Shown: positions 1 to 59,965 of the stretch, in pieces | Layout: each line of letters begins with the position of its first letter | Numbering within the stretch: position 1 is the first letter of the stretch | From: a virus | Direction: 5' to 3' (one strand) | DNA: 64,000 nt | Virus record (IMG/VR): IMGVR_UViG_3300045974_000760 | Location: 32,001 to 96,000 of that record | Position numbers and translations under genes: made by a program | The notes under the pieces: generated by a model | Databases searched by the model: none | Seen by the model: the letters and a program-made list of their open reading frames with translations, nothing else | Told to the model about the DNA's origin: nothing

Positions 1-195
1 CCTCCAGGCACCAACTTCCCGGAAGTGTGGCCCCCCGTGTGGGAGTCACGCGTGGATGTGATGGGGCGACCCGTTGCTCTGGCCGACGTCAATGCGATGC
101 TGAAGGCCAAGGCAACCAACCCCGAGCTCGTGCTTGTGACCACCGACCTGGGAGGCACCGCGGGTTGGACGAAGACCGCGGACTTCTTTCGATGA
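1..195 (+). CDS. hypothetical protein, 5'-partial
   Basis: Frame 1 is open from the window edge to TGA 193-195, overlapping the next ATG (ATGA). Confidence 0.6.
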   Translation, partial: PPGTNFPEVWPPVWESRVDVMGRPVALADVNAMLKAKATNPELVLVTTDLGGTAGWTKTADFFR

Positions 196-596
196 TCGGC
201 CTCCGCTGCCTGAACTGCCAACAGACGTACGCCCCTGGTACCGGAGCTACTGTACTTGGGGTCATGGTGTGTCCGAGCTGTGCAGTAGTTGCGGAACGTA
301 TTCTCGAGCGGGCTGAGGGCGAGCTGAAGATGCTCCTCACGCTGATGAAGGAGAAGGTCCGCCTGAGCCTCATCGAAGGCAAGCTGCAGTTCGGCCCCGG
401 GTCTGAGGAGCCGCCCAGCAAAGAGGACGTCCTCAAGGCCATCATCGAGCTACACGGGAGACAGAATGAGTCGCAAGGAAGCCAACGCCAACATCCTGCT
501 CGAGTACGAGACGAAGTGCGACACCCCGGACTGCCCGGGCAAGGGGAAGGCGTTGTCGAATCGTCTACCCACGGGCGCCCTTCTCTGCCTCGATTA
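192..596 (+). CDS. CxxC..CxxC zinc-finger protein (ends at TTA if TTA=stop)
   Basis: ATG 192, CLNC and CPSC motifs. In-frame TTA at 594-596; otherwise it reads through the whole 466-723 gene to 1154. Confidence 0.6.
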
Positions 597-723
597 CGAC
601 AACCCCCTCTACGGAATCTGCGGCCTATGCAAGAGACACAGCATGCGGGTAGTGACCCCGGAAGTACCAGTTCCAACACCCACTCCTCCCCCGGGATTTT
701 GGAAGGTGCCATCGCGCAGCTGA
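466..723 (+). CDS. small Zn-ribbon protein
   Basis: CDTPDC...CGLC; GGGAG upstream of the ATG. Confidence 0.65.
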   Translation: MSRKEANANILLEYETKCDTPDCPGKGKALSNRLPTGALLCLDYDNPLYGICGLCKRHSMRVVTPEVPVPTPTPPPGFWKVPSRS

Positions 724-725
724 AT

Positions 726-1154
726 GTGTTTCAGGCGCGCACAATGCGCCCGCTGTGCCGCCTTCTGGATGTGACGGTGAGCCGGCGCATCTCGAGTGAG
801 CGCGGCTACACATTCACGTGGGTCCTGCTGCAAGCCAAGCGCATGTACCTCGAGCGCGTCCCCATGCTCCAGGTGCTGCAAGGTACGGGGCTCATGGCCC
901 TACTCTGCCAGGGCGCGATTGTTTCCTCCCCGGGTGTTGAGAAGGGGGCGTACTACGGCTGCCCCTACTTGCTGGCGCAGACGCCCGCACAAGTACCGCT
1001 GCACACACCGAACTTCTCGAACGTGGCTATCGGCCTACTGCTCGAGGTAGTGCGCGGCGACAGCGTGCCGCCAATGGGCCCCATGGAAGTGTGGCGCGCA
1101 CTACTTCTCGACTCCGGTATTCCGCTCTTGACTCCTCCTACCACAACGCCATAA
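726..1154 (+). CDS. hypothetical protein
   Basis: GTG 2 nt after the preceding TGA; ends at TAA. Confidence 0.55.
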   Translation: MFQARTMRPLCRLLDVTVSRRISSERGYTFTWVLLQAKRMYLERVPMLQVLQGTGLMALLCQGAIVSSPGVEKGAYYGCPYLLAQTPAQVPLHTPNFSNVAIGLLLEVVRGDSVPPMGPMEVWRALLLDSGIPLLTPPTTTP

Positions 1155-1187
1155 GAGGTGGAGTACATTGTACTCCAGTGCGACTGA

Positions 1188-2366
1188 ATGAACCCGAACG
1201 CCCCGCCCCCGAATCCGTCGTACCTACCGACATCTCCGATTGTTCCTGGGGGACCTCCGGTGAACATCACTACGAAGGCGGCAGCGGCCCCGCCTGCGAT
1301 GTCACCACAAGCGCGTGCGTACCAGGAGCGCCTTGCTGCACAGCGTACCAATGCACCGCGTGCTGGTGGCCCTGGCCCCTCAATCCCCCTTCTCACTGCG
1401 CAGCATGTGGAGGGGATGACGATGGAGCAACAGGCAGAGGCAGCTCGACGTCAAGCCTTTGGGCAGGGGAGCGTTGCAGCGGGCAGTATCATTGCCCCGC
1501 CGACGTCTGTTCCTGCGGCTCCTCCTCCGTTCCAGTTTCAGATGACGGACATGCTGCCCGAGGCAGCGCAGCGGGACCCTGAGTACATCCAGGGAAGCGG
1601 GAGCTTGTACGCGAGCGCGCAGCCTCGCATGGCGTACAAGTACGGCGTCATCCGCAATGGTCAGCTCATCCCACCACAACAGGTGCAGAGCGGTGGTGCT
1701 GCAGGGAAGCTGAGCCAGGCGACACTGAAGGACCTCGAGACGCTGAAGGGTCTTCAGAAGCCTGCTGAAGCAGCTGAGGAGAAGGCGGAAGCCAAGGCGG
1801 ACGAGCCTACGCCGGAGGAGAAGAAGGCGAAGCAGGAGCGCGCCAAGAAGACGCTCGATGAGATGGGCGACCTCGACCTTGCCCGCTTGATGGATGCAGC
1901 CCGCACGGACATCCTGAACAACGATGAGCAGAAGAAGATCGTCGAGGGGCGCATCACGGAGGTGTTGAGCATCGAGGACCTCATCATGAACGGTGAGGTG
2001 TTCCAGCGGGTGCCCATCATCCCGGGGAAGTTCGAGCCGCGGTTCCGGTCGTTGGGCGTGCAGGAGGACCTGGCGTTGAAGCGCCTCATCATGCAGGAGG
2101 CGCGGACACTACAAGTGGCGGACACGTACTTCTCGGACAAGTTCACCTTCATGGGTGTTGTGGCGGGCCTGTACGAGCTCAACGGCAACCCGGTGCCTCA
2201 CCATCTCGACGAGAAGCGCAACTTCGATGAAGATCGCTTCTGGAAGAAGTTCGAGCATCTGTCGCACTACTCGTTCTGGATGCTGCAGTCGTTGTGCGTG
2301 CACTACGGCTGGTTCGATACGCGGGTGAAGAACCTCTTCAAGGCGGAGGCGATAAAAAATGGCTAG
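1188..2366 (+). CDS. putative tail assembly chaperone (short form)
   Basis: Pro-rich N-terminus and helical C-terminal domain; slippery A AAA AAT immediately before the stop. Confidence 0.55.
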   Translation: MNPNAPPPNPSYLPTSPIVPGGPPVNITTKAAAAPPAMSPQARAYQERLAAQRTNAPRAGGPGPSIPLLTAQHVEGMTMEQQAEAARRQAFGQGSVAAGSIIAPPTSVPAAPPPFQFQMTDMLPEAAQRDPEYIQGSGSLYASAQPRMAYKYGVIRNGQLIPPQQVQSGGAAGKLSQATLKDLETLKGLQKPAEAAEEKAEAKADEPTPEEKKAKQERAKKTLDEMGDLDLARLMDAARTDILNNDEQKKIVEGRITEVLSIEDLIMNGEVFQRVPIIPGKFEPRFRSLGVQEDLALKRLIMQEARTLQVADTYFSDKFTFMGVVAGLYELNGNPVPHHLDEKRNFDEDRFWKKFEHLSHYSFWMLQSLCVHYGWFDTRVKNLFKAEAIKNG

Positions 2367-2806
2367 CCACCCCCGAGGGATGGGCGAGGGCGAATCTACT
2401 GCTCCGCACATTGCAAGCCCCGCCGGAGAAGGATTCTCCTCGGGAGGTGGCGCTCACCTACTTGATCATCCGGCTCGAGGATATCGAACACTCGAAGTTG
2501 CGTGCGGTTGCGCAGCTGATTCTGCAGCCCGACAAGGGCAAGGAAGCGTTCGACGACTACATGAAGACGGCGTTCCCGTACCTCACAGTGGCACATGCGA
2601 GGGACAAGGATGCGATACAGGCACAGCTTGCGGAGGAGGTTGCGCGCGGCCCCCTACACGTGAGCGCCCTTGCCAAGCCTGCCGACGAAAAGAAGGTCAA
2701 CGCGCGCCGTGTGACACGAGCGCAGTACGATGCGGAGCAGGCAGCTCCAGCGAGGGATGCGACTGATATGTCGCGCATCTACTCCCGCCTACGAAAGAAC
2801 TCATGA
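2354..2806 (+). CDS. -1 frameshift extension of the chaperone (GT-like)
   Basis: The -1 frame ORF has no convincing start of its own and becomes protein-like exactly at A AAA AAT (KKWLATPEGW...). Confidence 0.6.
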   Translation, partial: KKWLATPEGWARANLLLRTLQAPPEKDSPREVALTYLIIRLEDIEHSKLRAVAQLILQPDKGKEAFDDYMKTAFPYLTVAHARDKDAIQAQLAEEVARGPLHVSALAKPADEKKVNARRVTRAQYDAEQAAPARDATDMSRIYSRLRKNS

Positions 2807-8296: not shown

Positions 8297-8577
8297 TGTG
8301 CTACTTCCTGCACATGCACCCTGACTACATCCGCGCGCTGCAGAAGAAGCGAACCTGGGAAGCTCTCGTGAGGCACCTGCGGGAGATCTACCTTCCGCAG
8401 CCGGGCTCGTCAGAGCCCCAAGAGCTCACCTCGGATGAGCTGCCCGGCAATCACAACCCCGTACCCCAAGACGTCCTGCTGGAAGTACTGAGCACACTGG
8501 AGACACATGCCTACGCCGAAGAACAAGAAGCGCACACCTTCCAAATGGTCCGGGCTCCCAAAGGACAAGGTTCCTGA
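8296..8577 (+). CDS. hypothetical protein
   Basis: Adjacent ORF; start may be ATG 8314. Confidence 0.55.
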   Translation: MCYFLHMHPDYIRALQKKRTWEALVRHLREIYLPQPGSSEPQELTSDELPGNHNPVPQDVLLEVLSTLETHAYAEEQEAHTFQMVRAPKGQGS

Positions 8578-8974
8578 AGACACACTTCAGACCGTTCTCG
8601 GGCTTCTGAAGCAACAGGCAGCGCGCATCGATGAGATTGGCACTGCGTTCAATCAGAACGCCGGCGCCTACTACGAGGGGTACCAGATGACGGAGATGTG
8701 GTCCGTCATCCAACGGCGCGTGCTCAGCGACATGTTGCGCGGCGAGGTCTACACCGTCGAGGTCGAGTACGCGCTGCCCCTGCGTCCGACAGACCTGCTG
8801 GACCAAGCGATGCACCCGTGTGTTGACTGGCAGAAGTACAAGGAGGACTACATCGCGATGATTGGGCTCATCGCAGCGCTCGATAACCTCAAGCACGTCT
8901 TCTACGGCTCGCAGGTGAAGTTGGCCACCGAAGCCGATTTGCGTGTGATTGAGTTCGGCGGGGATGTACCCTTA
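8507..8974 (+). CDS. hypothetical protein (ends at TTA)
   Basis: GGAG RBS; in-frame TTA 8972-8974 with an ATG 3 nt later. Confidence 0.6.
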
Positions 8975-8977
8975 GTC

Positions 8978-9160
8978 ATGGCCGCCCCCCTCACTCCCCC
9001 GGTTCGAGATGTACGTGGTCGCTTGCGCGAGCAGGCACAAGGCGGTCCTGCCCGCATCATCTGCCCCAACTGCAAAGGTGTGGCGGTTCCCATCGCCCCA
9101 GGTAGCACCGAGTACACCTGTACCACATGCGGCAACGGCTTTCGCTCAAAGCCGTTCTGA
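8978..9160 (+). CDS. small Zn-ribbon protein
   Basis: CPNC...CTTC; ATG just after TTA, preceded by a TACCCT -10-like hexamer. Confidence 0.55.
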   Translation: MAAPLTPPVRDVRGRLREQAQGGPARIICPNCKGVAVPIAPGSTEYTCTTCGNGFRSKPF

Positions 9161-13499: not shown

Positions 13500-13617
13500 T
13501 AAGAAGTAGGACCGGATGACCCCGGTTTTTTTAGCCTCATGTCTTGTGAACTATTCGCCCATCCCCGGGATAAGAGAGCTGGCCGGACTTCACTGGCCCA
13601 TTGCCGGGGACATTCAA

Positions 13618-17900: not shown

Positions 17901-18547
17901 ACGCTTTCAACCAAGGCCAGATGATCAAGTCGATGGAGGCGTCGGCCTCTGTGTCCGGCATGATGGACCAACTGTCTACTGCTCAGAAGCGCGAGATGGA
18001 GACGAAGCTGCGTAACACCGGCGGCAAGGGTCAAGGCCTTGCTGACGCACTCGGACGTGCTGCGCGTGTTGAGGACCGGTATACGAAGGCGGCCAACAGG
18101 TACGGTGCTGCCGCCGGTGCGGGAGCCATCTTGGGTGTTGAAATGAGTGACGAGGAGCGGCGCAACCTGAGTAAGGCCGACCCTGCGAGCCAGGCGCAGA
18201 CGCTGCTTGCGGCGCGCGGCATTGACGTCACCAAGGGCGACGGTAGCCAGATGCTGACCGACCTCACAAACACTCTCCACGGGGAGAAGTGGGTGGACGG
18301 CAAGGTGGTCGGCAAGATGTCGAACGAGGAGAAGGCGAGCCGACTCAAGGACATCTCTGGTCGGGCGGATGCGCAGGCGAAGGAAAACCAGGGCAAGGAA
18401 AAAGAGAAAGACAGTAAGGCGCTTGCAGATGCGATTGGTAACGCGGTCGGCGTCAAGATGGGGGAGATCTTCGGTAAGCCCATTCGAGTAATCGACGAGT
18501 CAAAGGGCGGCGGAAACGGCAACCCCGTGAAGACACCCGGACAATGA
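14906..18547 (+). CDS. tape-measure-like virion protein (1213 aa)
   Basis: Long Gly/Ala/Met-rich helical protein at the head of a tail/baseplate-like gene run. Confidence 0.6.
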   Translation: MPLSSSDIAQMNGGYQQMAMGQMQYAGMIGRYGMQQGQSQYGQPADMMMGRAMNAGMAVGAPVATMGMGMMGLDAMSMGMAGASMGWKAGGLMGAVGGGMAAAAIPMAATAAVSYGASQMMEGAHQQQLINQTMRTNFNQIGQYGRGFQRQEMTQIGQQMRGMTHEFGAGGEITTMNELTNLAGKMGQMGGGRGIQDVQEFGRRFKELVSTVKTVAQELGTSLESAQNMMQGLKGSGVFSKGNQMSAFKMAKGAALGGNLAMEEVMGMGNMGSQIARSIGGRGRAGFTAGVKTAGMVGGALETGVLSEEDIYNATGQVGAEGREALGASLMSVNASFLRSSRGRRVMASMAGENGSLNADDAEAYMSSGGFGVGGTMGRARKNANRSRAGFLRNEGKMRGEVMALDPLVGVRQTMTWLEERGFDMNSDIGRIALQRQMKAGGANVGEEQLDAMVKLVQKGDIIGDNQKSRLAQDKTMQDIGNMQKTTGMAGLKTKLEHARESVQGKLQQIGAEFMNSGAEQIERAINQLSDQYVQTYSRIADDAFRQGAKGSSAGASRFKDAIGATRHAGEASAGQFREELFGGQRRKDDFSAFAASGDKERYEKAGYTMRSMSDVSRAEAMSQGARNRDPSWFQAGAELREEIQNAYLNGDFAGKGDKRLYATHAFLRGKDSTGKERRLGTGQDIGADLGMMGSNMAQSDADRAKQASQSSSLLEGAGVRSNGFDLPESRRGLTGNLGHTAAERAELFGLATMKPAPTEVKPLRWRKRAGGGMEPIVEAGAGESWVADKEKARAVGQWMESDTGKKALFGMMSTDKTTSTRAATENRERLLELVGGEDGDPSKLKGAEKDEFDARTIAGDAQEVGRMMEDDKNITLEEASAKVAEKKGGGRTAERVAAAYKGITGGMAEQGFGESRKMARTLRGEGQAAQDDMRKRGLITMNDDGSVGLSAATKEDLKNFGKDSTGKVNLGDHAGKMLEAMVTAENIKTTLSMAPGNDAFNQGQMIKSMEASASVSGMMDQLSTAQKREMETKLRNTGGKGQGLADALGRAARVEDRYTKAANRYGAAAGAGAILGVEMSDEERRNLSKADPASQAQTLLAARGIDVTKGDGSQMLTDLTNTLHGEKWVDGKVVGKMSNEEKASRLKDISGRADAQAKENQGKEKEKDSKALADAIGNAVGVKMGEIFGKPIRVIDESKGGGNGNPVKTPGQ

Positions 18548-18810
18548 AATCACTACTCTTCCAAAACCCTCTCCCTCCCTTCACACAACCGCCCGGCTGT
18601 GAGCCAGGATGTGGCGAGCAGTCCATCAGCATCAAGAAGAACGGCAAGCTCTACAAGCTCGTTGTTCGCACGAAGACGGGCATCGAGTTCCCGTACCTGA
18701 CGATGCTCCGCGCCTACGCCCACTCATTGCAGGCCAGCGAGCCGTATGCTGGTACAACGCCTGGGCGAGACCTTCGTGACGCCCTCATCAAAACGAACCT
18801 CGTCGTCTAA
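18544..18810 (+). CDS. hypothetical virion-module protein
   Basis: ATGA coupling. Confidence 0.65.
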   Translation: MKSLLFQNPLPPFTQPPGCEPGCGEQSISIKKNGKLYKLVVRTKTGIEFPYLTMLRAYAHSLQASEPYAGTTPGRDLRDALIKTNLVV

Positions 18811-18825
18811 CCAGAAGGTGCGCCC

Positions 18826-20286
18826 TTGTCCGTCTACATCGAAATCACCACGCAGTCGTTGAATCTGCAGACGAACCTTCAAGGGCAAGGTGGCGGCAGC
18901 TCACGTGCAGGCCGGGCGTCTGCACGAAGGCCGCTGCGCGGGACCGAAATCAAGGAGAACACGTACGGGGTGATGAAGGCGGTACTGCCCGACGGCACCC
19001 CCATCCCGCTCATCTCCTCGAACAACGCTGAGGGCAAGGTCAAGGGCTGGACGAACTTCATGCTCCAGAGCGTGCAGGAGTCCCGCGTTGAAAAGCAGCA
19101 GATGATCGAGACGTTCGGGGACACGTACGTCTGGTTCTTCGGTGAGAGCCCGCGTTTTCTCGATGTGCAAGCCATCGTCCTCAACTCGAACGACTTCAAC
19201 TGGGAGGCCGAGTTCTGGGCGAACTACGAGCGGTACTTCCGAGGCACCAAGTTGACTGAGCTCGGGGCGCGTCTGTACCTCTGCTACGACGACACCATCG
19301 TCGAGGGCTACATGATGAACGCGCAGGCACAGAAGACCGCGCAGCAGCCCCTCGAGGTCCCCATTGCGTTTCGACTGTTCGTGACGGGCAGCACCAACGT
19401 CTCCAACGTCGGTAGCGGCGCCTTCCCCATCCGCGCAAGCGTGCAGGGCCTCTGGCCCATGGAGAAGCTACGTAAGCCCCTCAGCCCCGACGACATCAAG
19501 AAGCTCGTCAAGCTCAACGGCAGCCACATCCCCTCCGATGTCGACATCGGCGACTTCGTCAACAACGCCGAGGCACTCGTCGACCGCCCTCTGCGCAGCA
19601 ACATCGAAGACAATGCCGACGAGTGGACTGACCCAGATCCCTCTCCCTTCATCGAGAAGAGCGACTTCCAGGACGACATCGATGACCTCCTCGTCGCGCT
19701 CAACAAGGGTATGCAAGATCTAGGTGCCCTCACCAGCCAGCTGCAGAGCTTGATGGACCCGCAGAGCGCCTACGGCAGTGTCTTCAACAAGTCCCCGCTC
19801 AACACGCTGCCCTCGCTCTCCCCCAAGGAGCAGTGGAACAAGCTCAAGAAGACGTACAGCGACGCCAAGAACACCACGGAGAAGATCTCCAAGACCGGCA
19901 GCAAGGTCGTCAACGCCGTCACGCACAGCGGGCAGGAGTGGCACGACTTCTGGAACGACCCCGATGCCTACGTCGCTGACAAGGTGAAGAAGTCGGGCCT
20001 CTACGACAAGGTCGTCAAGGAGGCGAAGAAGCAAGCCGAGAACGTCTGGGAAGGCAAGCCCATGACCCTCAACTCCACCGTAGGCAGCCCCCCACGTACT
20101 GGACCCCCAGCCTCTCTCGCCCCTTATGGCATTGGCTCCCCAGGTACTACCGGTGGTGTCGCGAACAACAACTCCACCGGCGGCTACTCCTACGGGTACA
20201 GCTACTCGGGCGGTACTGGCTCAGGTGACTCACCTTCCTACTCGAAGTCCATCTTCTGGTCATCGACTGGTGCTAAGGCACCATTA
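18826..20286 (+). CDS. tail/baseplate-associated protein (ends TTA-TGA)
   Basis: beta-rich FMLQSVQESRVEKQQMIETFG...FFGESPR domain; last codons are CCA TTA TGA. Confidence 0.6.
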
Positions 20287-23200
20287 TGAGCGGAATCGGC
20301 AATCGACTACGGCTACGGTTGTTCATCGAAGGTGTTGAGGTCCCGCTCATCGCGGCCAACATCCAGTGCAACCCCAACAGCCCCATCATGTGCAGTCTTC
20401 AAGTCCCCCCACTTGAAGAAGGCACCAAGCTGAAGGAGTGCTCGCTCGTCCACGTCTTCTTCTTCGACTACGCCGAAGCCTCCAGCGGCCTCGTCTCCTT
20501 CCGGGGTGACCAGGCCGCAGCGCACGCGCAGAACGACCCCACCGCCTACGAGCAGACCAAGCAGCGGCGGGAAGCAAACAACAACGGGGATAACACTCCG
20601 TCGGCTGAGGACTACGCCACCGAGCTTCGCAACGAGCGCTTCAAGCTCTTGTTCGTCGGGGAGATTGTGGGCTTCCAGTGGACGAAGTCCCCCACGTCTC
20701 GCTCGCTCGTTCTGCAGTGCATGGACCTGTCGAACTACTGGGACCGCGCCTATCAGTTCTCGAACGGGGACTTGTTCGGGCCCGGGTACAAGGCGCTCTT
20801 CTCAGGCGGGGCAACGAACCTCTTCACCGACTTCTTCGAAGAGAAGGGCGGGGCAGTACTTCGCATCCTCAATACCTCGTCCACCAACTACCCTGGCATC
20901 AAGGGTCTGCCGGGCGGCCTCATCCACCTCATCGAGGCAATCGGCGGTTCGTACTACAAGAGTGAGAACCCCGGCTCGAAGGGTCAGCGGGATGTGTACG
21001 CGGGCCAGAATATCTTCTTCTCCCTCACCGAGCTTCGCTTGCACATCACCCAGATGGTGCACGCGTACCAGAAGGATGACACCGCCTACAAGCTGATGGG
21101 GCCTTCGTGGGATTCGCTATTCGGCCGTACTATCGGCGGTCTCGGCGAACAGGTCTCCATCCGTCAGGCCATCAATGCGGTTGCGGGCCTCATCTTCTAC
21201 GAGACCTACTCTATCCCGACGCCTCGGTATGTCCCCGGCCTCGAGGGGAGTATCAGTGGGTATGTGAGGAGGCGCGCCAAGGAGGACCCGAAGGGGAAGG
21301 TCATCGTATCCTCCTGCGAAGATGTGGCTACTGGATTGAAGCTGGCGGTGACGGAGCTGAACTACGTGCAGAGCTCTGCGGGCGTTGCGGATAACGCGGT
21401 GGCGCAGGACCAGTCCATCTTCACGGCGGTGAAGAATCGCGCGCAGGACGTCCGCACCTTCAAGAGCAATCTCGGCGGCCAGCTGCAGAAGACGACGGAG
21501 TTGCTGGGGAAGATCATCCGCTCGTGCCGCGAGCAACGAATGGACTCCCTGACGGGGCCGATTACCGTTGCCCGCACGGCACTGGCGAAAGCCATCACTG
21601 CGACCCGCAACAAGACGTGGACGGCCAGCAAGGATAGCGTCGCCACGCAGACGGTGATTGAGAACCTCGGGGCAGCCTCCGCGGCATTGGATTCACTGGG
21701 TAACATCGAGGTGGCATACACGGCGCCGAAGGATGCTCGACCTGCCAAGCTCATACAGCAGATCTTCCGTCCGGACGTGTGGTTCAGCGCACCGCCGATG
21801 TGCAACATCATCTTCCCGGACCAGTACTCGCAGATGACGTACTCGAGGAACTTCCTCGAGGAGCCGACGCGCCTACTGCTCAAGACGCACGACGAGTTCT
21901 TCGGTGAGGATGAGCTCTTTGACAACTTCTACTTCGCGCCGAAGAGTCCGACGACCGGCTCGAAGGAGCGTGCGCAGCTTCAAAAGCTATTGGCCGGTGA
22001 CATTCTTGCGCACGAGATCTACGTGGGCATCCTGCCGGTGTTCGAGAAGATGGGGGAGTTCAACATCTTCGCGGTGAGGGACGGCAAGAGCAAGGGTAAG
22101 CAGCCGAAGATTGGGCTTGCGCAGCGCAGCACGAACTTCCTCTACTTCCGCCATCGGTTCGCGAACAGGCAGATGCAAATCTCTTCCCTGTTCGACCCGT
22201 TCATTGTCCCCGGCTTCCCCTGTCTCGTGATTGACCGCCCTTCTGACTACGCGACGGTGAACAACTACTGGCAGTACGTGCAGAACGTGGGTAAGCCCAA
22301 CACCGAGCTCAACGCCACGCTGGGCACGCACTTCCTCGGCAATGTCGCGATGCTCTCGCACACGCTCTCGCAGCAGTCCGGGACGACGGACATCGTCTGC
22401 GGGTACGCGAGGCAGTGGGAGGAGAAGATCGAGTTCCTCGACTCCATTGACCCGGAGAAGGACCAGTTCGTTCAGAAGCGCTACGGCAAGGACGCTCTGC
22501 GCTCTACGGATGTGGCTGCGCTCTCCCCGCCCAAGGTGGGTACGCTGGGCCCGAACTTCGGGCAAATCACCAAGGTCGCGGATGTCACCGACCAGTACAT
22601 CCCCTACCGCCAGTTCGAGACCCTCCTCACCAATCTCAAGCTCGAGAAGGACACGCTCCTCCTGCCCTTCTACAAGGGCCCTCGTCGTTCGGGTATTGGT
22701 GACCTCTCAGCCCGTGTCCCCGTTGGCATCCCCGTCATCCCGAGCTCGCTCGGCGACGACTCACAGAAGGCGCTCGGCGCTACGAGCGATACCCCGCTCA
22801 CCTTCCGTGCGTACCGCGTGGAGGAGGAAGTACCTCGCTACCGCAAGGAGAAGGTGGACCTACCTGCCGAGGAGCAGATTCGTCCGGGCTGGTATGGAGA
22901 CTGCTGGCACACAAGCAAGATCGGCGAGGTGTACCAAGAGTTCTTTCGAACAGGCGCCCTCACCGACCCCCAGCAGGTCGTCGACCCCATGGGCGCCAAC
23001 CAGGGCATCACCTCTGCGGACGCGCCCGATGCACTCGCGATGGCAGCAAACGGGCGGGACCCCACAAGCCCCAACGCTCAAGCCCCCGCCATCTTCGCTC
23101 TCGACAACGACAGCTCCATCGAGCAGTCGGTCGCCTTCTTGCTCATGGTGTACAGCTACATCAAGCAGAACGGGGCTGACATCAAGACCTTCATCGACAG

Positions 23201-23489
23201 CTACAAGCACCGCCCCATTGCTTCCATCCCCGACATGTTCGGGTCTGCCGACCTCGAGTTCTCCCAACCCACAGGGCAGAAGGTTGTGAAGGGCGTTGAG
23301 GGCTTCCACAGCCGCGCGTTCGGTCAGTACAACAACATGTTCGGGCTCGTGACGTCGGACATCGCGAGCATCGTGGGCATCAAGCCCAACAGTACTGCGG
23401 CAACGCGCGGGGACGTACGCAAGGAGAAGCAAGACGCGGTGCTCGCGTACGTCAGCCGCCTGTTCGGCGGGCGTAGTGTGCTCGGCTAA
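20286..23489 (+). CDS. large baseplate-hub-like virion protein (1067 aa)
   Basis: RLFIEGVEVP...LFVGEIVGFQ...LVLQCMD and IVPGFPCLVID...FLGNV..LSH segments resemble hub proteins; position after the tape-measure-like gene. Confidence 0.55.
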   Translation: MSGIGNRLRLRLFIEGVEVPLIAANIQCNPNSPIMCSLQVPPLEEGTKLKECSLVHVFFFDYAEASSGLVSFRGDQAAAHAQNDPTAYEQTKQRREANNNGDNTPSAEDYATELRNERFKLLFVGEIVGFQWTKSPTSRSLVLQCMDLSNYWDRAYQFSNGDLFGPGYKALFSGGATNLFTDFFEEKGGAVLRILNTSSTNYPGIKGLPGGLIHLIEAIGGSYYKSENPGSKGQRDVYAGQNIFFSLTELRLHITQMVHAYQKDDTAYKLMGPSWDSLFGRTIGGLGEQVSIRQAINAVAGLIFYETYSIPTPRYVPGLEGSISGYVRRRAKEDPKGKVIVSSCEDVATGLKLAVTELNYVQSSAGVADNAVAQDQSIFTAVKNRAQDVRTFKSNLGGQLQKTTELLGKIIRSCREQRMDSLTGPITVARTALAKAITATRNKTWTASKDSVATQTVIENLGAASAALDSLGNIEVAYTAPKDARPAKLIQQIFRPDVWFSAPPMCNIIFPDQYSQMTYSRNFLEEPTRLLLKTHDEFFGEDELFDNFYFAPKSPTTGSKERAQLQKLLAGDILAHEIYVGILPVFEKMGEFNIFAVRDGKSKGKQPKIGLAQRSTNFLYFRHRFANRQMQISSLFDPFIVPGFPCLVIDRPSDYATVNNYWQYVQNVGKPNTELNATLGTHFLGNVAMLSHTLSQQSGTTDIVCGYARQWEEKIEFLDSIDPEKDQFVQKRYGKDALRSTDVAALSPPKVGTLGPNFGQITKVADVTDQYIPYRQFETLLTNLKLEKDTLLLPFYKGPRRSGIGDLSARVPVGIPVIPSSLGDDSQKALGATSDTPLTFRAYRVEEEVPRYRKEKVDLPAEEQIRPGWYGDCWHTSKIGEVYQEFFRTGALTDPQQVVDPMGANQGITSADAPDALAMAANGRDPTSPNAQAPAIFALDNDSSIEQSVAFLLMVYSYIKQNGADIKTFIDSYKHRPIASIPDMFGSADLEFSQPTGQKVVKGVEGFHSRAFGQYNNMFGLVTSDIASIVGIKPNSTAATRGDVRKEKQDAVLAYVSRLFGGRSVLG

Positions 23490-23532
23490 CACGTCTTTCT
23501 AGCCCCTTGTTGTCGGTGCTACAGTGGCGCGT

Positions 23533-24048
23533 ATGACCGACTACACCCCCGACTTCGCGACCTGCTTGATGAGCGGGTTCACGGACGAGCTCAGCAAGAT
23601 GGCGGCTGACTTCGCCGCCCTCGGACTCGACGCTGATGACCTGGCGAAGATCGCCAATGTGGCGAACTTCTTGACGAGTGCCTCCAAGGGCTCAGTGGGT
23701 GCCGCCATTGCTCAACGAAATGCGGCGCGCGTATTTGGCGCAGGAATCAATACGGCAGGTGCCGTAGCTCCCGCGGCTGCCGCCGCTAAGATGGTTGGTA
23801 GCGCGGCCCCCGTCAAAGCGGTTGGCGCTAACGTCGGGCGGTCGCTTCCTTCGGTCGCCTCGCCGGCAGCTGCAGCTAAGCCTGGTGGACTGTTCGGCGG
23901 CGCAACCCCCGACTTCAGCGGTGGGATGGCGCGCAAGCCGCCTCCACTCCCGGCGGCAGCTATGCGCCAGCCAACCCCGCCCCCGCTTCCGCCACGCGCA
24001 CAACGCTTCCCACAAGTCGCAACTCCCCAGCAGGCAATGGCTGCCTGA
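23533..24048 (+). CDS. Ala/Pro-rich putative virion-internal protein
   Basis: FTDELSKMA motif; leaderless TGCTACAGT-N7-ATG. Confidence 0.6.
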   Translation: MTDYTPDFATCLMSGFTDELSKMAADFAALGLDADDLAKIANVANFLTSASKGSVGAAIAQRNAARVFGAGINTAGAVAPAAAAAKMVGSAAPVKAVGANVGRSLPSVASPAAAAKPGGLFGGATPDFSGGMARKPPPLPAAAMRQPTPPPLPPRAQRFPQVATPQQAMAA

Positions 24049-25169: not shown

Positions 25170-25183
25170 AAGGGACCCGCTAC

Positions 25184-34661: not shown

Positions 34662-34712
34662 AGCACGGCAAGCTCGACATGTACGGCGTCGAGCTGCCAT
34701 GCTTTTTAGCCT
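34661..34712 (+). terminator. long hairpin + TTTTTAGCC
   Basis: AGCTCGAC/GTCGAGCT stem extended by GGC/GCC and AAGCA/TGCTT. Confidence 0.7.
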
Positions 34713-34713
34713 C

Positions 34714-37700
34714 ATGTCCTTCACCGCCGATGAAGTAGATGCCGCCGTTCAGAAGCTCGTCCAAGTCTCACTTCAGGTGAAGATGGATGCGACTGGCGCT
34801 CGACGTACGAGCGACACGTACGACGAGCTGATGTCCACAGCCGCGGGCCTCTTTCTCCTCTTCCCATTCGCCCCGCTCTACATCTTGTACCTCGCAGATG
34901 TGCGGCTGCGTACCCTCATCAAGACGCAGGTCGAGCAGGTCACCAAGCTACAGACCGCGCTCATCGCAGCAGCTCGCGCCGTCACACCCATCGAGGACAT
35001 CAGCGCGCTGAGTGAGGCGCGTGTTGCGCTCTCCGAGCTCGAAGGAGCTGCGGGCTCCCGCACCTCGACCTTCACCGACACTTCGACGCTGCCGGCGTAC
35101 CAACGGTTTCAGACACAAGCAGCTCGCTTTCTCGCGGGCCCGGCTCAGGTGGTGAAGTACGGCAACGACATCGTACAGACACCCCAAGAAGCACGCGCCT
35201 CCATCCCCGCGCTCGTGCTCGCCATCAAGACCACGCAGCTCGAGCTGCAGCGCAAGGCCACGCTACTCGCGGCCGGATACGCCGACTACGAGAGCTTGAA
35301 GCTCCCCTCCCGCCTCACGCGCTCCATGCTGCAGAAGGCGCGGACCACACTACAAGACCACGAGACTCGTCTCGCCTCACAGACACCACAAGAGCGGTTG
35401 TCGACGATGAGGAACGTGACGCTCGATGTGCTCGCCACCAAGGCAGCGGTAGCTACCACCGCTGCCTTCACCCCGTTGTCTGGCTTCCACAACATCGCAG
35501 GCACCGGCTCACCTCTCGGGGATGCAGCACACCCTGCAAATCCCGCCAGCCTCACAGCCAGTGTTGCGAGCCCCTACCCTATCGCCCAAGGCACGTCCTC
35601 CTCTCTCGAGGTGTGGGTAGATGGCGCGGTCTCTGCCAGCGAGACACTCGAGCTCAATCCCGCAACCACACCTGAGTTCATTGGCACAGTACCCGAGCCC
35701 TTCGAGATTGATGTCGCGAGCTCCCCCTTCACGTACAGCGTCACGCTCAGCGGTACGACGTACAGCTTCACGCATGACCTGACCGCGCTTGTGGGTTCAG
35801 GTTCGCGTCTCGCAGAGGAGGTGGCCAACGTCCTCAACCCGCTCATCGCGAGTTGCAACATCGCGTTCTCACCGGTGTTCAACGCGCTCAAGCTCGCAGG
35901 CATCACCACCCTCCTCACCGACGGGGGGATGGTAGGCGGGGATTGGACCCTCACCTTCGAATCCTTCGGCGCGAACTTCATCAATCAGGCGGTGGTGGTC
36001 GGGGACACCATCCTGCTCGAGGCCGCTGTAAGTGCAGGTCTTGGCGCGCTCGAGCACACAGCATGGACGGTGACATCGGTCTATCCGCTCGGTGTCAACC
36101 AGCACCGCATCATCGCCAAGCGCACACAGGCCTCCTTCGTCCTGCCCGCCTCCCCGCACAACATCAACTTCCGCATCGGCGACAAGAAGCAGCTGCAGCT
36201 CGGCCCGCTTGATGTACCGCTCGCCATCACGCAGGACATGGTCATCGCCATCGCGCCGGGCGCTACCAATACCGGCGCTACTACCGTGGGGATGCTGCCT
36301 GGCCTCACGCTCTCAGTAGGGCGCGTGGCTGCCAGTGACCTGATGGCCGACATCAACAGCAAGGCCAAGAAGTGCAAGGCCTCTGTCTCCTTCGTTCCCA
36401 CGCGCACCACGTCCTTCTATGGGTACTCGGACCCCAACGACCCAACCACGCTCGCGCTCTCTTACCTCAACCGCACCTTCCGAACCCTCACCGCAGGTGC
36501 GAGCACGTTCACGCTCAGTGTGCCTGATGCCGACCTTCTCGGGCTTGATGTTACGGTCGGCGATTACGTCACGCTGCGCTCGGGCGTGGACCTCGGTGAT
36601 AGCTTCCCTGTGAGTAGCGTGGATGCGCACACCATCACGTGCACTGGTACGCCAACGAGCGGGCTTGTGCAGTTCGACGTCAGCCCTGACCTCACCGCAC
36701 TCGCGGCCATCAACGACGTGGTCTCGGTGACAGAGGGGCCCAACACACTCCAATACGTTGTGCGGGCACAAGGACTGCGCCGCACCGAGCTCGTTCTGCA
36801 GACCGCACTGCCCAGCTTCAAGGACCCAAGTACGGGCAGCGCCATCGAGTTCCGTGGCGTGCTCGGCAAGACCCTCATCACCCTTGCCTCCCTCGATAAG
36901 ACCACCAAGTCCGCCATCCAGCTGCGCGGGCCCGCCTCCACACTCTTCAATCCCACCTACCCCATGAGTAGCTACGTGTTCGGGGCAACACCCTGGGTCA
37001 AGCTCCCCATCCTTCCTCGCGCCCTCGAGGCAGGTGATGTGCTCGAGCAGTACGGCTCCGACTACCAGCTCCCTGACAGTACGCACACCATCATCGATGT
37101 CGACCGGGCCAACAAGGGCATCAAGCTCGCGACCCCGGTGGATACGCAAGTCGCGCTCTCCTTCGTCGACCAAGAGCCGCCCTTCGCCAAGGTGCGTATC
37201 GCCAAGCATGCCGACTTCCAGACGCTCTCCACCGCGCTCACTGCGTGGCTCGCGCGGGAGGAGAACCAGAGCAACTACTTCGCCAACCTCAACGCGCTGC
37301 TCAACCCCATCCTGCTCAACGTCAACCCCACCTACGAGCAGACAGGCACAGCCGCGAACTCCGTGGCCATCCTCGCGGCGGGCCTCACGCCTGCCTTCGC
37401 TACCTCACTCGATGCTGACCCCGCGGTCTCCGTCGACTACGCGCTCGCAGCCTACACCGCCGACCCAATCCGTGAGGTGGACGCGCTGCTGCGAGCTCTA
37501 CGAGAGCGGGGAGCAGCACGCGCCTCAGACCTCCTCCTCGAGGGACAGTTCACCACGTTCTTCGGCATCCCCGCCGAGGAGGCTACGTACGCAGGCAAGA
37601 TGTCCTCTGACGTACGAGCGGTGACGCGTGAAGACCTCGTGGTTCGCCGCACTACCTCGAACGCCAAGGCATCTCAGCGCCTCATGGCTTCTGTGCCTGA

Positions 37701-40712: not shown

Positions 40713-41026
40713 AGCCCCTCTCCCGCAAAGAGAGGGAAGTACTGAAGGTGGCCAGGGCACTCCATCTGCGACTGGGTGCCCCGCCCACTTTCAGCCAGCT
40801 GCGGACTGAGCTAGGCAAGGACGGGACGAACCACGTCTACGCGAGGGTCTACAGCATACGGGGCAAGGGCCACGAAATCCCCGTACTACCGCCCTTCGCT
40901 CTGTCACAAGACACCAGGCTACGTGAGTGCAGGGCGCTTGTGCGGCAATGGCGGGAGGACCCAACCATCGAGCCTGTGGATGTGCTCACGCTGATTGCCG
41001 AGCTACTCGAGCCGGGGAAGCAATGA
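40694..41026 (+). CDS. LexA-N-like winged-HTH protein
   Basis: LSRKEREVL...GAPPTFSQL...LG. Confidence 0.6.
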   Translation: MDTKDLKPLSRKEREVLKVARALHLRLGAPPTFSQLRTELGKDGTNHVYARVYSIRGKGHEIPVLPPFALSQDTRLRECRALVRQWREDPTIEPVDVLTLIAELLEPGKQ

Positions 41027-41193
41027 ACGGGGGCCCGCAAGTCATTGCCGTACTGCGACGGGCCAACACAATCTGCCTTGCCAAGCGCGCACAACGTGTC
41101 TTGGCGAGGCAGGTAGCACCTGCGCTATTCGCTATCCTCCTCATCGCAGCTGGTGCAAGGAACAAGGAAGATGAAGCCCAGCTCCCTGTTTTA
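41023..41193 (+). CDS. small protein (ends at TTA)
   Basis: ATGA coupling; in-frame TTA 41191-41193, just inside the next gene. Confidence 0.5.
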
Positions 41194-50866: not shown

Positions 50867-51128
50867 CCACATCAGGTTGATGCTGTTCGGTCCGTACGAC
50901 ACTACGTTCAGCCCGCACCTTCCCTGTGAGATTCGGGGATGTGCGGGCAGTCGTTGTGAGCTCATGTCCGAAGACATGTTCTACGGTGACGGTGAGGACA
51001 TACACTTCGGCACGCGCAGCTACGACAACGAGCTCGAAGCGCCGGAGTACATACCCGACGGGCCCATTGGCTCCTTCGAGATGGCAGGGCCTCGCGCAAG
51101 GCGCGCGGTCTTGGGCGTCTATGCGTTA
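50853..51128 (+). CDS. array peptide 1 (ends at TTA)
   Basis: TTA 51126-51128 overlaps the next gene's start (ATG 51121). Confidence 0.55.
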
Positions 51129-51892: not shown

Positions 51893-52085
51893 CAATGCCC
51901 TGCTCATCGTGCGGTCCCGCTACACACTGTTTGCTGAGCCGTGCCCTGGCCTAATGGCCTCCGACGCGGCCTGGTGCGCCTCACTGACCAACACACAGGA
52001 CGCACGACGTACCTGGCATTGTTACCTCATTCGATACCGAGAGTGCATCGGTGAAGCGGAAGGATGGGAAGATGATTGCGGTTAG
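51882..52085 (+). CDS. array peptide 6
   Basis: AGGA RBS. Confidence 0.55.
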   Translation: MIPSNALLIVRSRYTLFAEPCPGLMASDAAWCASLTNTQDARRTWHCYLIRYRECIGEAEGWEDDCG

Positions 52086-52281
52086 AATGTCCCACTACGC
52101 GTACTGGGGTACTTCCAGTCAACCGTATCGACACTACGCTGAGTCGCAATGTGAGTACCTTTGCGAGCGTCCGTGGAAAGGTGACGCGGAGGAGTACGTG
52201 TACGATGAAGAGGAAGCGCTGAGCGGTTGTCTGTACGAGGAGTACACGTACAGCCACCGCTCGGCAGAAGGGCGGTGTTTA
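52072..52281 (+). CDS. array peptide 7 (ends at TTA)
   Basis: Paralog of peptide 9; TTA 52279-52281 gives a near-identical length (69 vs 70 aa). Confidence 0.65.
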
Positions 52282-52282
52282 C

Positions 52283-52468
52283 GTGTGGCTACGAGCTCTG
52301 CCCTTCGTGCCCTACATGCACTTCTACGAGTACACGCCCATTGCCTCCCACGAATACAACCTCGTAACGGAGTGGAACGTGTTGCTCGTAGAAGAGCTCG
52401 ATACAACGAACCCAACATACCGAGGTTACTGCGCGGACGAGATACTAGACACACACAGGGGCATCTAA
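52283..52468 (+). CDS. array peptide 8
   Basis: GTG 1 nt after TTA; TAATG coupling to the next gene. Confidence 0.55.
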   Translation: MWLRALPFVPYMHFYEYTPIASHEYNLVTEWNVLLVEELDTTNPTYRGYCADEILDTHRGI

Positions 52469-52680
52469 TGATTGTGCTTCGAATGTCTCACTACACGTAC
52501 GAAGGCACGCACGCGCAGGATGAATGTGCGGACTGGTATAGCGAGGCGTATCCGCCACATTACCTCTGGGCGGTAGATGCGGAGGAGTATGCCTACGTGG
52601 CCCCCCTCCCTGGTGAGCCAGGAGGCGGTGTGCTCGACCACGAGTACACCTACAGTAGTCGCGAGATTGAGAATCGATGA
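52468..52680 (+). CDS. array peptide 9
   Basis: MIVLRMSHYTY...DAEEYAY...EYTYS. Confidence 0.65.
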   Translation: MIVLRMSHYTYEGTHAQDECADWYSEAYPPHYLWAVDAEEYAYVAPLPGEPGGGVLDHEYTYSSREIENR

Positions 52681-57628: not shown

Positions 57629-57904
57629 ATGCCTATCTCACCCGATGCAGCACGAACCATTACTGACCCCGCGTTGTTGACCCGCTTGTCCGAGTTCATG
57701 CAAGTCGTCGACATCGCTCTGATTCAACGCGCGGGAGCTCCAAGTCATGTCTTTTCCCCGCCCGCTGACTTGTTCGCCCACCCCAAGGCGCGGGAGTTCT
57801 TCAGGTCAGCCTACTGGGGGGCTGGCTGGCACGTGTACTTCAGGCTCGAGTACGACCGTGTCCCCGAGCTCACCCTGATACCCAAAGAGGCCAAGGCGTC
57901 ATGA
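57629..57904 (+). CDS. hypothetical protein
   Basis: AAGGA RBS; promoter motif at 57581. Confidence 0.65.
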   Translation: MPISPDAARTITDPALLTRLSEFMQVVDIALIQRAGAPSHVFSPPADLFAHPKAREFFRSAYWGAGWHVYFRLEYDRVPELTLIPKEAKAS

Positions 57905-58257
57905 TTACACCCGAGGAGCTGATGAGCGTCATCGTGCGGTTGTTCGGTGCGGCTGCCGTGATGCTCCTCCTGGTGGCATCTGCGGGCCTGCTACGCATCT
58001 GCTCCCTCCAGGAGAAGCTCAAGATGGTCGGGGAGAAGGAGCGGAGGGTGACGGCGGCCGAGCACACCTCTCTCGATTGGTCCCGTCGCATGGGCCTCGG
58101 TATGCCCGTAGGCCAGCAATGCAGCGTCGTGGATGACGCAGGGCGGGTCTTCTGTACCCTCGCCCATCGAACCCCCGACACGTCTCTCGCAACGACGTAT
58201 CTCTGGTGCACCGCTGAAAGGTGCACCACAACAGACACAATGCCTGTACCGGAGTTA
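57901..58257 (+). CDS. membrane-anchored Cys protein (ends at TTA)
   Basis: TM helix, several Cys; TTA 58255-58257 with an ATG 4 nt later. Confidence 0.6.
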
Positions 58258-58261
58258 CAAC

Positions 58262-58495
58262 ATGGACATCTCATACAGCACGCAGTTGTGGGAGCTACCG
58301 GTTGTGGAGCGCAACTGGTGGAAGCAATACGTGAAGGGCAAGGACGGGATGAGCGTCGACTTCCCGAAAGACCGCGGTCTGATGACCGTCATCACCGCGA
58401 GCTCACAGGAGCAGCTCGACGCTGCGCTCAAAGAGTTCGACGAGAAGTATCCCTCGATGTACTCCGGGATGAACCGGGCAGTAGGTGGGCCATGA
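58262..58495 (+). CDS. hypothetical protein
   Basis: GGAG RBS; its stop overlaps the next ATG (ATGA). Confidence 0.65.
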   Translation: MDISYSTQLWELPVVERNWWKQYVKGKDGMSVDFPKDRGLMTVITASSQEQLDAALKEFDEKYPSMYSGMNRAVGGP

Positions 58496-58902
58496 CGAAC
58501 CAGAACGACTACAAGCTGCGTTGGCGCAATACCCCCGAGGGCTACGTCCTCTTCCTGCGGTCCCATGAGGAGGGTAAGCCAGATGAGATAGTGGCACAGG
58601 CGTGTTTGGCACCCGCGCTTCAGACCGCCATCGTGCTGGTGGTGTTGCGCTCGCCACAGGGTAAGCCGCTGACCGTCGAGCCGGTGGTGTCGATAACGAG
58701 CGGGGCGCTCTCGCTGGAGGAGACGCTCGAGCTCGCTGTGTGGTGCTTCGAAGAGTCGGGCCTGGAGACAAGGCAGCTCCAGCCCAACAGCATCGATTGG
58801 TTCGCCTTCCCGTCGGGAGCGAAAGAGCGGGCCCAGGCGAACAGGAAGAAGCAGCTCGATCAAGAGGCTGCAGATGCTGCTTGCAAGAAAGAGCCGAACT
58901 GA
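58492..58902 (+). CDS. hypothetical protein
   Basis: AGGT RBS; ATGA coupling. Confidence 0.65.
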   Translation: MTNQNDYKLRWRNTPEGYVLFLRSHEEGKPDEIVAQACLAPALQTAIVLVVLRSPQGKPLTVEPVVSITSGALSLEETLELAVWCFEESGLETRQLQPNSIDWFAFPSGAKERAQANRKKQLDQEAADAACKKEPN

Positions 58903-58911
58903 CACAGACTA

Positions 58912-59019
58912 GGAGGAGTCGGGAGGTACGCGGTACACAACCACTACTGGTTTGAACGACCTTTCAGTGATGCCGGGAAGCTCAATGAAAGTGTTCGCCG
59001 CGTAGCTCTTGGCCCCTCC
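58912..59019 (+). ncRNA. structured ncRNA closed by a 22-bp stem (possibly Y-RNA-like)
   Basis: 58912-58933 pairs with 58998-59019 (2 mismatches, 3 G-U); internal AACCA/TGGTT and CTTTCA/TGAAAG stems. Confidence 0.5.
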
Positions 59020-59020
59020 G

Positions 59021-59091
59021 GGGAGGTTGGGGCGGTTCCCCTAGCGGGCCTTATAAGCCGTGATCCACGGGTTCAACTCCCGTACCTCCTA
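59021..59091 (+). tRNA. tRNA-Ile(UAU), atypical anticodon stem
   Basis: Acceptor GGGAGGT/ACCTCCT; D stem GGGG/CCCC; loop CT-TAT-AA; T arm ACGGG-TTCAACT-CCCGT. Confidence 0.6.
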
Positions 59092-59121
59092 CAACAACCA
59101 CAACACAGAAAGGAGCAGCCC

Positions 59122-59565
59122 ATGGCTGTTCGACGTATCCGTGTACCTGCGCGCGAGCTCTCACCCGAGCTGCTCGATGCGGTTCGCGCTATTGCAGCAA
59201 CCAATGATGTACCTGCAGAGGACGTTGAGGTTGACATCGTCAGTCCAGCGGATGCGCCACTACGCGACCGCGTACTAGCTCTGCTGGGAACGCCGCGTGA
59301 GGGCCCGGTGTTTGAGCAGCAGTACCAAGGCATGTTCATCGAGGCTGATAGAGTGCCTGAGCACCCTGAGCTAACGCCACAGCAACAGGCGATACTGAGG
59401 CGGCAGCGAGAAGCGATGTTCGGGAGGAGATACGGGCGTAGCGGCAGAGACTTCAGTGTTTCGTCCCCGCCGCTCACAGAGGAAGAAGGGCGCGCCCTGA
59501 GCAATACACTCGTGGACTCCTTGCGTACACCGCCAGTGCTGCGCAGACCGCATCTTCATGTCTGA
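59122..59565 (+). CDS. hypothetical protein
   Basis: AAGGAG RBS. Confidence 0.65.
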   Translation: MAVRRIRVPARELSPELLDAVRAIAATNDVPAEDVEVDIVSPADAPLRDRVLALLGTPREGPVFEQQYQGMFIEADRVPEHPELTPQQQAILRRQREAMFGRRYGRSGRDFSVSSPPLTEEEGRALSNTLVDSLRTPPVLRRPHLHV

Positions 59566-59965
59566 GCAAGACTGGGCAGACATCCAGCAGTGGAGCGGTG
59601 AGTCGCCGGATATGGCAGATGCCGTGGCCATGGCCGTAGCAAACACCGTCAAGCCGCGGGTGAAGCGCCCGAAGTACCTCGGTGAACTCATGAAGAAGGG
59701 CGGGCTCGATATCGACGCCATCATCAATAGCCGGGTCGGTGACTACTACTCCCTGGACAAGCCCCGTGACCCAGGCTTCGCCAACTACCTCAAGGACACG
59801 TACAGGTGGAGTAAACACGAAGCTCGCCGCCAATGGCGCGCCCTACTCGATCGCGATATCGACCCCGCGGTAATACTCAACACAAGGAGGGCAACGTGGC
59901 GAAAGATGACGCAGAACAAGCAAACGAAGGTCGCGACCTCGGAGCAGAACCTAGTAGAACCGTTA
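59558..59965 (+). CDS. LG.L..LDID-motif protein (TTA 59963; next standard stop 60001)
   Basis: YLGELMKKGGLDIDAIINSR. Confidence 0.6.

Follow-up and report, generated by a model that had tools for sequence, protein, structure and literature searches.

The stretch of DNA considered here, which we call the window, comprises 64,000 nucleotides (nt), bases 32001-96000, of the virus record IMGVR_UViG_3300045974_000760, a linear phage sequence of 143,216 bp with a guanine plus cytosine (GC) content of 61.3% and a CheckV completeness of 77%. Positions below are those of the window unless they are called genome coordinates, which are the coordinates of the record. The subject of this work is the leucine codon TTA (UUA in the message), for which the original prediction, made by reading the window, had proposed a role as a fourth stop codon. 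Most genes of the phage lie on the + strand, and few of its proteins are named by Pfam or PHROGs. Genes were called with a codon log-odds model trained on long open reading frames (ORFs), combined by dynamic programming with terms for the start codon and the ribosome-binding site; under the standard code, the whole record yields 192 genes and 44,568 codons at a coding density of 0.914. The earlier estimate of about 125 genes in the window proved too high, as our calls number 104 with the standard code and 112 once TTA is added to the stops. At all eleven places where an in-frame TTA had been listed, the triplet is present in the expected frame, and at three of these, 8972, 27953, and 31237, the ends of homologous proteins coincide with the TTA column.

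At 8972-8974 (+ strand), a TTA closes a gene encoding 155 amino acids (8507-8974), and the ATG of a 60-residue zinc-ribbon gene (8978-9160) follows 3 nt later in the same frame. CCC TTA GTC ATG is the sole separator of the two genes, and under the standard code they become a single 217-residue ORF (8507-9160). The homologue of the upstream product on contig L110 is 156 residues long, shares 55% amino acid identity, and ends with GGDVQSKAS-TGA. This TGA overlaps, as ATGA, the start of the next gene, whose product, MTVPLTPPVRDAQGKLRHQAQGGP… (MTVPLTPPVRD), matches from its first residue the window protein MAAPLTPPVRDVRGRLREQAQGGP… (MAAPLTPPVRD) that starts at ATG 8978. The zinc-ribbon protein is also encoded by a separate gene of 77 residues in G001, one of four related genomes that serve as controls below. 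Because the zinc-ribbon genes stand apart in L110 and G001, we read 8507-9160 as two genes in the window as well. In two contigs from other runs (L108 and L109, 90% nucleotide identity), the differences from the window fall mostly at third codon positions, and CCC TTA GTC ATG is unchanged.

A second TTA, at 27953-27955 (+ strand), closes the gene of a 273-residue sigma factor (27134-27955), which is followed after a 78-nt spacer by a DUF932 gene (28034-29020) in the same frame. The standard code turns the pair into a 628-residue ORF (27134-29020) consisting of a sigma factor and then DUF932. Ten metagenome homologues of the sigma factor are 248-300 residues long and have their stops 1-8 residues from the TTA column (1 to 3 codons away in L006, L010, and L012), which bears out the proposal that the sigma gene ends here. 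The DUF932 half matches 480 phage records and is its own gene wherever annotated; the 39 proteins (345-390 residues) that match the 628-residue ORF all cover the DUF932 half only, and none of them is a sigma-DUF932 fusion. The spacer contains a GC-rich hairpin (GGCCCG…CGGGCC), a pyrimidine tract, and AAAGG ahead of the DUF932 ATG; a scan for consensus terminators made no call on this hairpin, the tail of which is pyrimidine-rich and not a T-run. Sigma and DUF932 were the sole names returned when ten TTA-containing ORFs were compared with Pfam and PHROGs, and the sigma factor alone, used as a protein query against viral contigs, gave no match.

A sigma-factor search supplied a set of related-phage contigs, and two of these carry TTA at positions that align with stops. 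In L001, whose sigma protein is 56% identical, an in-frame TTA occupies the same column of the sigma alignment and is followed by a hairpin, a T-run TTTTTCTTTT, a GGAG, and the ATG of DUF932, while reading on to a standard stop would take 31 codons more and end within the next gene. In another L001 gene, encoding a small protein, TTA-CTT-TTA (5409/5415) takes the place at which eight homologues end, with AAAGGG and an ATG behind it. In L003 (35% identity), a TTA (2739) falls exactly at the end of the protein that corresponds to the 1067-residue product of the window (20286-23489), which the window phage closes with TAA; the protein ends at the same place in L002, L004, and L009, and L007 has a stop where L003 has its TTA. 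Beyond this TTA, the L003 frame stays open for 106 codons and runs across the next gene.

The third homologue-backed site is the TTA at 31237-31239 (+ strand), which closes a gene encoding 338 residues (30223-31239). The standard code would add 60 residues, to 31422, that have no counterpart in the homologues. Homologues in the loci of eight relatives stop at this column, with aligned ends such as YAVRRSI-stop and WAVRRSF-stop against YASPRSR-TTA in the window. Fused homologues and a TTA within the core of a conserved domain were both looked for in connection with the phage genome, and neither was found.

Over the whole record, the standard-code calls contain 16 in-frame TTA codons among 44,568 (0.36 per 1000), and none of them lies in the interior of a protein body that is supported by homologues. 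Eleven of the 16 fall within the last 30 codons of a gene, where a fraction of 0.129 is expected (binomial p = 3.9e-7). The control codons ATA, CTA, TGT, TTT, and TAT have only 0.10-0.16 of their occurrences in this interval; CTA was the codon suggested for comparison. AGA (0.33) and AAA (0.25) are raised there, as expected of gene ends that the ribosome-binding site of the next gene overlaps. The five TTA codons that lie farther from a standard stop are those at 8972, 27953, 31237, 594, and 13531. The claim that in-frame TTA occurs only at gene junctions thus holds at the first three of these, where homologues back it, while 594 is ambiguous and 13531, which had not been listed, sits in a terminator. 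The three standard stops remain in use, as had been stated, with 135 genes genome-wide ending in TGA, 26 in TAG, 18 in TAA, and 23 in TTA; TTA closes about 1 gene in 9 (about 15-23 of about 200). TTG serves as an ordinary Leu codon, with 174 occurrences among 18,982 training codons. A single in-frame TAG was noticed, in a gene described below, and we see no sign of wholesale TAG or TGA recoding because the coding density under the standard code is already 0.914.

The same analysis was applied to the four related genomes. G001 (193,844 bp, 63.1% GC) has 13 in-frame TTA codons in 61,618 (0.21 per 1000), two of which are in the last 30 codons of a gene (p = 0.58), and allowing TTA as a stop changes its gene-calling score by -31. 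G002 (62.4% GC) has three TTA codons (0.11 per 1000) and none near a gene end, and the TTA codons of G004 (172 at 58.6% GC) and G003 (949 at 44.7% GC) are evenly spread. Interior TTA is present in G001, G004, and G003, and in all four genomes there is no 3' bias of TTA and the score change with TTA as a stop is negative or near zero. Because these four genomes show no bias, the pattern does not follow from rarity, GC content, or the gene caller; it is a property of the window phage and some of its relatives only.

The coding signal breaks off at the TTA sites. In 21 TTA-ended genes, the 60 codons before the TTA have GC fractions of 0.62/0.48/0.70 at the three codon positions and a mean log-odds of +0.16, and from the TTA to the next standard stop these values become 0.74/0.61/0.48 and -0.32, compared with -0.22 behind ordinary stops; we note that this test is partly circular, the gene caller having chosen those ends. 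Counting from TTA, the next standard stop in the same frame is a median of 37 codons away (range 0-354), similar to the median of 32 behind ordinary stops. When genes were re-predicted genome-wide with TTA as a stop, as had been recommended, the total score rose by 273 with the first model, which also called 13 more genes, and by 220 after retraining. Of the other codons treated in this way, AGA gives +109, and ATA, TGT, TAT, TTT, CAT, CTA, and AAA give changes of -160 to -1060. In the resulting calls, 11 of 20 TTA ends overlap the next start or precede it by at most 10 nt. The residue before TTA is Pro in 5 of 23 genes, compared with 14 of 179 at standard stops, a marginal difference (p = 0.048), and a +1 shift would reach TAG or TAA at only 3 of 17 sites.

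The remaining sites in the window, all on the + strand, are described mainly by their codon statistics. The TTA at 58255-58257 closes a gene of 118 residues (57901-58257), with a GGAG upstream of ATG 58262, which opens the next gene in another frame; the downstream coding score is -9.6 in the TTA frame and +12.1 in frame +1. Read with three stops only, the ORF 57901-58902 crosses the gene that starts at 58262 and would swallow it, as the original prediction had said. The TTA at 52279-52281 stands 1 nt before GTG 52283 and closes a weak 76-residue ORF (52051-52281; score 4.4), with downstream scores of -13.6 in frame and +11.5 in frame +1. Since the ORFs 57901-58902 and 52051-52680 have no homologues in the four related virus records, both of these junctions rest on codon statistics. 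At 41191-41193, a TTA closes a low-scoring 56-residue ORF (41023-41193) and is followed by scores of -17.7 in frame and +14.0 in frame +1. A tandem TTA-TTA (33912-33917) closes the gene 33549-33914, and the next predicted start is at 33937; the scores after it are -18 in frame and +9 in frame +1, and the site has no homologue evidence. The small gene 50964-51128 (54 residues), for which we found no homologues, is closed by the TTA at 51126-51128, across which the score passes from +9.9 upstream to -34.5 downstream in frame. At 59963-59965, where the gene starting at 59558 or 59612 ends, it passes from +7.3 to -15.2, and a TAG follows 11 codons on, just before the ribosome-binding site of the next gene.

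Three further TTA triplets in the window contribute less. The sequence CCA TTA TGA at 20284-20286 is as reported and overlaps the ATG (20286) of the 1067-residue gene; as evidence for a stop it is uninformative, since the TTA may be the last Leu codon or one half of a tandem stop. The TTA at 594-596 lies inside a long ORF (start at 27 or 192, end at 1154) and is ambiguous: the 40 codons upstream of it score -8.6 in the TTA frame and +11.9 in frame +1, and the sole homologue (G001, 96 residues) ends at residue 97 of the protein that starts at 192, which is 38 residues before the TTA. The TTA at 13531 is placed within a hairpin and T-run, GGACCGGATGACCCCGGTTTTTTTAGCC (…CCCCGGTTTTTTTAGCC), upstream of the real gene start, and for this reason we do not regard it as coding. 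The hairpin and T-run extend over 13516-13545 and end in TTTTTTTAGCC; the true start is near 13621, and ATG 13516 within the hairpin misleads ORF callers into a false in-frame TTA at codon 6.

Outside the window, homologues speak to several TTA triplets. At genome position 15647, the homologues in G001 and G004 end in …AAY-stop where the phage has …AAY-TTA-TAG, and at 25627 a 66%-identical G001 homologue ends at most 2 residues from the TTA. At genome 112905 (- strand), a convergent gene that homologues support ends 7 nt away from the TTA. At genome 31079, the coding potential switches strand at the TTA, and the coding-like tail there is the shared end of two convergent genes. These two genes appear to share their end triplet (genome 31079-31081, window -921), the TTA of the + strand being the TAA of the - strand.

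The record contains eight tRNA genes according to ARAGORN. A cluster at 59021-61853 (+ strand), delimited with ARAGORN, Rfam, and predicted folds, comprises tRNAs for Ile(UAU), Tyr, Asn, Val(UAC), Leu(UAG), and Thr(UGU) together with a tRNA-like element, and the eighth tRNA, with the anticodon CUA, lies outside the window. That the phage supplies tRNAs for ATA, GTA, CTA, and ACA agrees with a GC-rich host in which tRNAs for codons ending in A are scarce. None of the eight is a tRNA-Leu(UAA), in a record that CheckV places at 77% completeness, and no release factor or other RF-1-domain protein is encoded in it; the search for both in the phage record had been proposed with the original prediction. 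The tRNA-like element (61029-61114; Rfam tRNA, 41 bits) has D and T arms and no 7-nt anticodon loop, and in its predicted fold the anticodon arm is replaced by a longer helix with a GAAA cap. Any bearing of this element on UUA decoding is pure speculation.

Near the tRNA with the anticodon CUA, at a distance of about 100 bases, is a gene for a Pth2-like peptidyl-tRNA hydrolase (L013; genome 109393-109837, which would be 77393-77837 in the numbering of the window and is outside it), and it is this gene that holds the one in-frame TAG. In G001, about 165 bases separate the sole tRNA gene, called as Phe(GAA), from a weak Pth2-like match of 17 bits that falls short of the family cut-off. The hydrolase and the tRNA may form a conserved module in the phage family. 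We considered the hydrolase as a route of peptide release and set it aside, as its presence does not correlate with the TTA pattern: G001, where the pattern is missing, has a weak match too.

One lead toward a host comes from the contig of a relative that sits in a metagenome-assembled genome (MAG) of the Myxococcales. This MAG has canonical motifs in release factors RF1 (PVT) and RF2 (SPF), and with 2 in-frame TTA in 85,000 codons it offers too few for a test of position. When 401 Myxococcota genomes were scanned for the RF2 motif, the matches listed all read Ser-Pro-Phe, and 137 genomes gave none; the scan does not exclude an altered RF2 in the group. An apparent RF2 hit with "RPF" turned out to be an off-frame chance match in a membrane-protein gene. 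These results do not confirm a myxobacterial host with an altered release factor.

Taking the homologue ends at three sites, the absence of fusions among the homologues, the non-coding tails, and the TTA kept at the sigma end in L001 together, we find the proposal that UUA is a terminator supported and consider it probable that TTA ends translation in this phage. Ribosomes on the messages of this phage, and of at least L001 and L003, would terminate at UUA beside TGA, TAG, and TAA. The cause would lie in the translation system of the host, where we place it because the phage has neither a release factor nor a tRNA-Leu(UAA). By analogy with organelles, the most likely agent would be an RF2-type class I release factor with a widened specificity that releases at UUA, in a host that would have lost its tRNA-Leu(UAA). 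A less likely course is that UUA is simply unassigned and that ribosomes stalled on it would be resolved by a rescue or hydrolase route.

Several observations weigh against termination at UUA and limit how far it can be generalized. In L002, L005, and L006, TTA aligns with Leu, Ile, Val, Arg, and Thr, and conserved protein continues after it; judged from these alignments, the three more distant relatives read TTA as a sense codon. The phage family as a whole can thus be translated with TTA as Leu, which would make termination a trait of particular phage-host pairs and not of the whole family. At genome 112905, the G001 homologue has Leu-Ala opposite TTA-GCA and is 12 residues longer. Homologue support covers three window sites and two or three elsewhere, most others depending on codon statistics, and several of the TTA-closed ORFs are small and weak (41191, 52279, 594). 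Large C-terminal overhangs without TTA exist as well, for example at genome 138376-139506, so an overhang alone is not specific. Finally, termination is read from the sequence, and both the loss of tRNA-Leu(UAA) from the host and the altered release factor are our inference.

Could TTA still encode Leu, decoded poorly by a scarce or regulated host tRNA-Leu(UAA) and tolerated near C-termini, with the tails and fusions actually made and the true stops being TGA, TAG, and TAA? TTA is equally rare in G001 and G002 (0.21 and 0.11 per 1000 codons), where it is plainly sense, several of the sense TTA codons of L002, L005, and L006 fall in the last fifth of conserved proteins, and three TTA codons of the phage genome stand directly before a standard stop. 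Yet those equally TTA-poor genomes, G001 and G002, have no 3' bias, and the explanation needs three products that no homologue shows: a sigma-DUF932 fusion translated through a hairpin and a ribosome-binding site, two genes read as one at 8972, and 60 extra residues at 31237. The tails are non-coding in composition, and the TTA at the sigma end is conserved across a protein identity of 56%. Moreover, TTG and CTA codons, from which TTA can arise by mutation, far outnumber TAA stops, yet no interior TTA is present. A codon that is merely avoided and neutral in position would look different, TTA being enriched at gene ends and kept at the sigma end in L001. We therefore regard poor decoding as Leu as unlikely.

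That so many TTA ends (11 of 20) lie within 10 nt of the next start or overlap it, and that TTATG and TTATGA arrangements are present at genome 96563 and 52284, could instead reflect a programmed pause or stall at junctions, serving coupling, frameshifting, or the fate of the message, with release later or by rescue. The excess of Pro before TTA (5 of 23 versus 14 of 179, p = 0.048) and the Pth2-like hydrolase encoded by the phage would suit such a stall, but a match to the hydrolase also occurs in G001 without the TTA pattern, and some TTA ends precede long spacers (78, 170, and 957 nt) or convergent genes (genome 31079 and 112905), where there is no start to regulate. A +1 shift leads to TAG at 3 of 17 sites only, and a stall that never led to release would cost the phage about 10% of its gene products; a programmed stall seems to us quite improbable. 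An artefact, in which errors of assembly or base calling turned TAA or TGA into TTA or the gene caller created the pattern, is very improbable. The record is a metagenome assembly and was compared with contigs and not with raw reads; nonetheless, other samples, assembled independently, contain the same TTA (at 8972 in L108 and L109, at the sigma end in L001, and at the end of the 1067-residue protein in L003), which we take to exclude an assembly artefact. TGA and TAA are otherwise abundant, a contig from the source sample differs from the window by 2 letters in 17 kb, and the same caller finds no bias in four related genomes.

Some observations concern the record and its relatives more generally. 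Near-identical DNA was found in one pond metagenome run only, possibly the source of the phage. Two activated-sludge runs, and a third run that has no organism label, contain contigs about 88% identical to 18000-35000, and contigs about 90% identical to 8507-9160 occur in two public runs, perhaps among those just mentioned; given these contigs in other runs, the lineage is not confined to the source pond. None of the runs listed as matching the phage DNA is an RNA run. In a collection of cultured phages, no close relative was found by a near-identity search with the gene for a 1213-residue protein or by a protein search with the gene for the 1067-residue protein. The L002 homologue of the latter continues in another frame after L002 1654-1656 and was called in two pieces, which may reflect a frameshift, either programmed or erroneous. 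The 376-residue ORF at genome 138376-139506 (- strand) matches, with residues 15-121 alone, stand-alone proteins of 87-136 residues in G001, G002, and G004, and because it contains no TTA it looks like a true extension or fusion.

UUA is known as a stop codon in the mitochondria of labyrinthuleans such as Thraustochytrium (NCBI table 23) and in the plastids of green-coloured dinoflagellates (PMC12574857). In these organelles the tRNA(UAA) gene is lost, and a substitution at Ser204 of the organellar RF2 has been proposed as the cause; UUA and UUG are both stops in the mitochondria of Marsupiomonadales and Pseudoscourfieldia marina, where a modified mtRF1a is implicated (PMC12574857). The phage resembles the table 23 organelles in the codon concerned, in the direction of the change from Leu to stop, and in the continued use of TAA, TAG, and TGA. 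As in them, the codon is absent inside genes and stands at the stop columns of homologues. No cognate tRNA(UAA) gene is among those of the phage record (77% complete). Unlike an organelle, a phage must use the release factors of its bacterial host. TTA closes about 10% of the phage genes, compared with up to half in the dinoflagellate plastids. With the mitochondria of Marsupiomonadales and P. marina, the phage shares a Leu codon turned terminator, in both cases deduced from alignments of C-termini, but in the phage TTG stays a normal Leu codon.

Other departures from the standard code are known in bacteria and phages. AGA and AUA are unassigned and simply avoided in the high-GC bacterium Micrococcus luteus. 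The likeness to the phage would be an A-ending codon made unreadable in a GC-rich system by loss of a tRNA, and the phage tRNAs omit UUA; unlike the avoided codons, TTA in the phage has gene ends as its preferred position and is conserved at them. Phages of the crAss-like and Lak kinds, which read TAG or TGA as sense, likewise have genes that the standard table misreads, and the present phage carries an amber-suppressor-like tRNA(CUA), but the change proposed here runs in the opposite direction, from sense to stop. The bldA targets of Streptomyces contain TTA inside the coding body, where it is read as Leu; they too represent a rare TTA dependent on one tRNA in a GC-rich setting, whereas the phage genome has no interior TTA. 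No phage or bacterium in which UUA terminates translation came up in a full-text search of the literature, and a phage and its bacterial host are a new setting for a code change known from mitochondria and plastids.

The wider reading is that a free-living bacterial lineage and its phages share a four-stop code in which UUA is read by a release factor, to which phages of unrelated lineages (the 143-kb phage and L003) would have adapted independently, and we hold this to be evenly poised between right and wrong. If true, it would be the first sense-to-stop reassignment outside organelles, in a bacterial translation system and its viruses. If TTA terminates translation in this phage, about 1 gene in 9 of it and its like is misannotated under table 11: proteins such as sigma and DUF932 are joined falsely, others gain spurious C-terminal tails, and genes further downstream are cut short or swallowed. 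The pattern would also imply a natural UUA-recognizing release factor or rescue route, of interest for genetic code engineering, and TTA-closed genes would provide a sequence marker that links uncultured phages to hosts with the same code.

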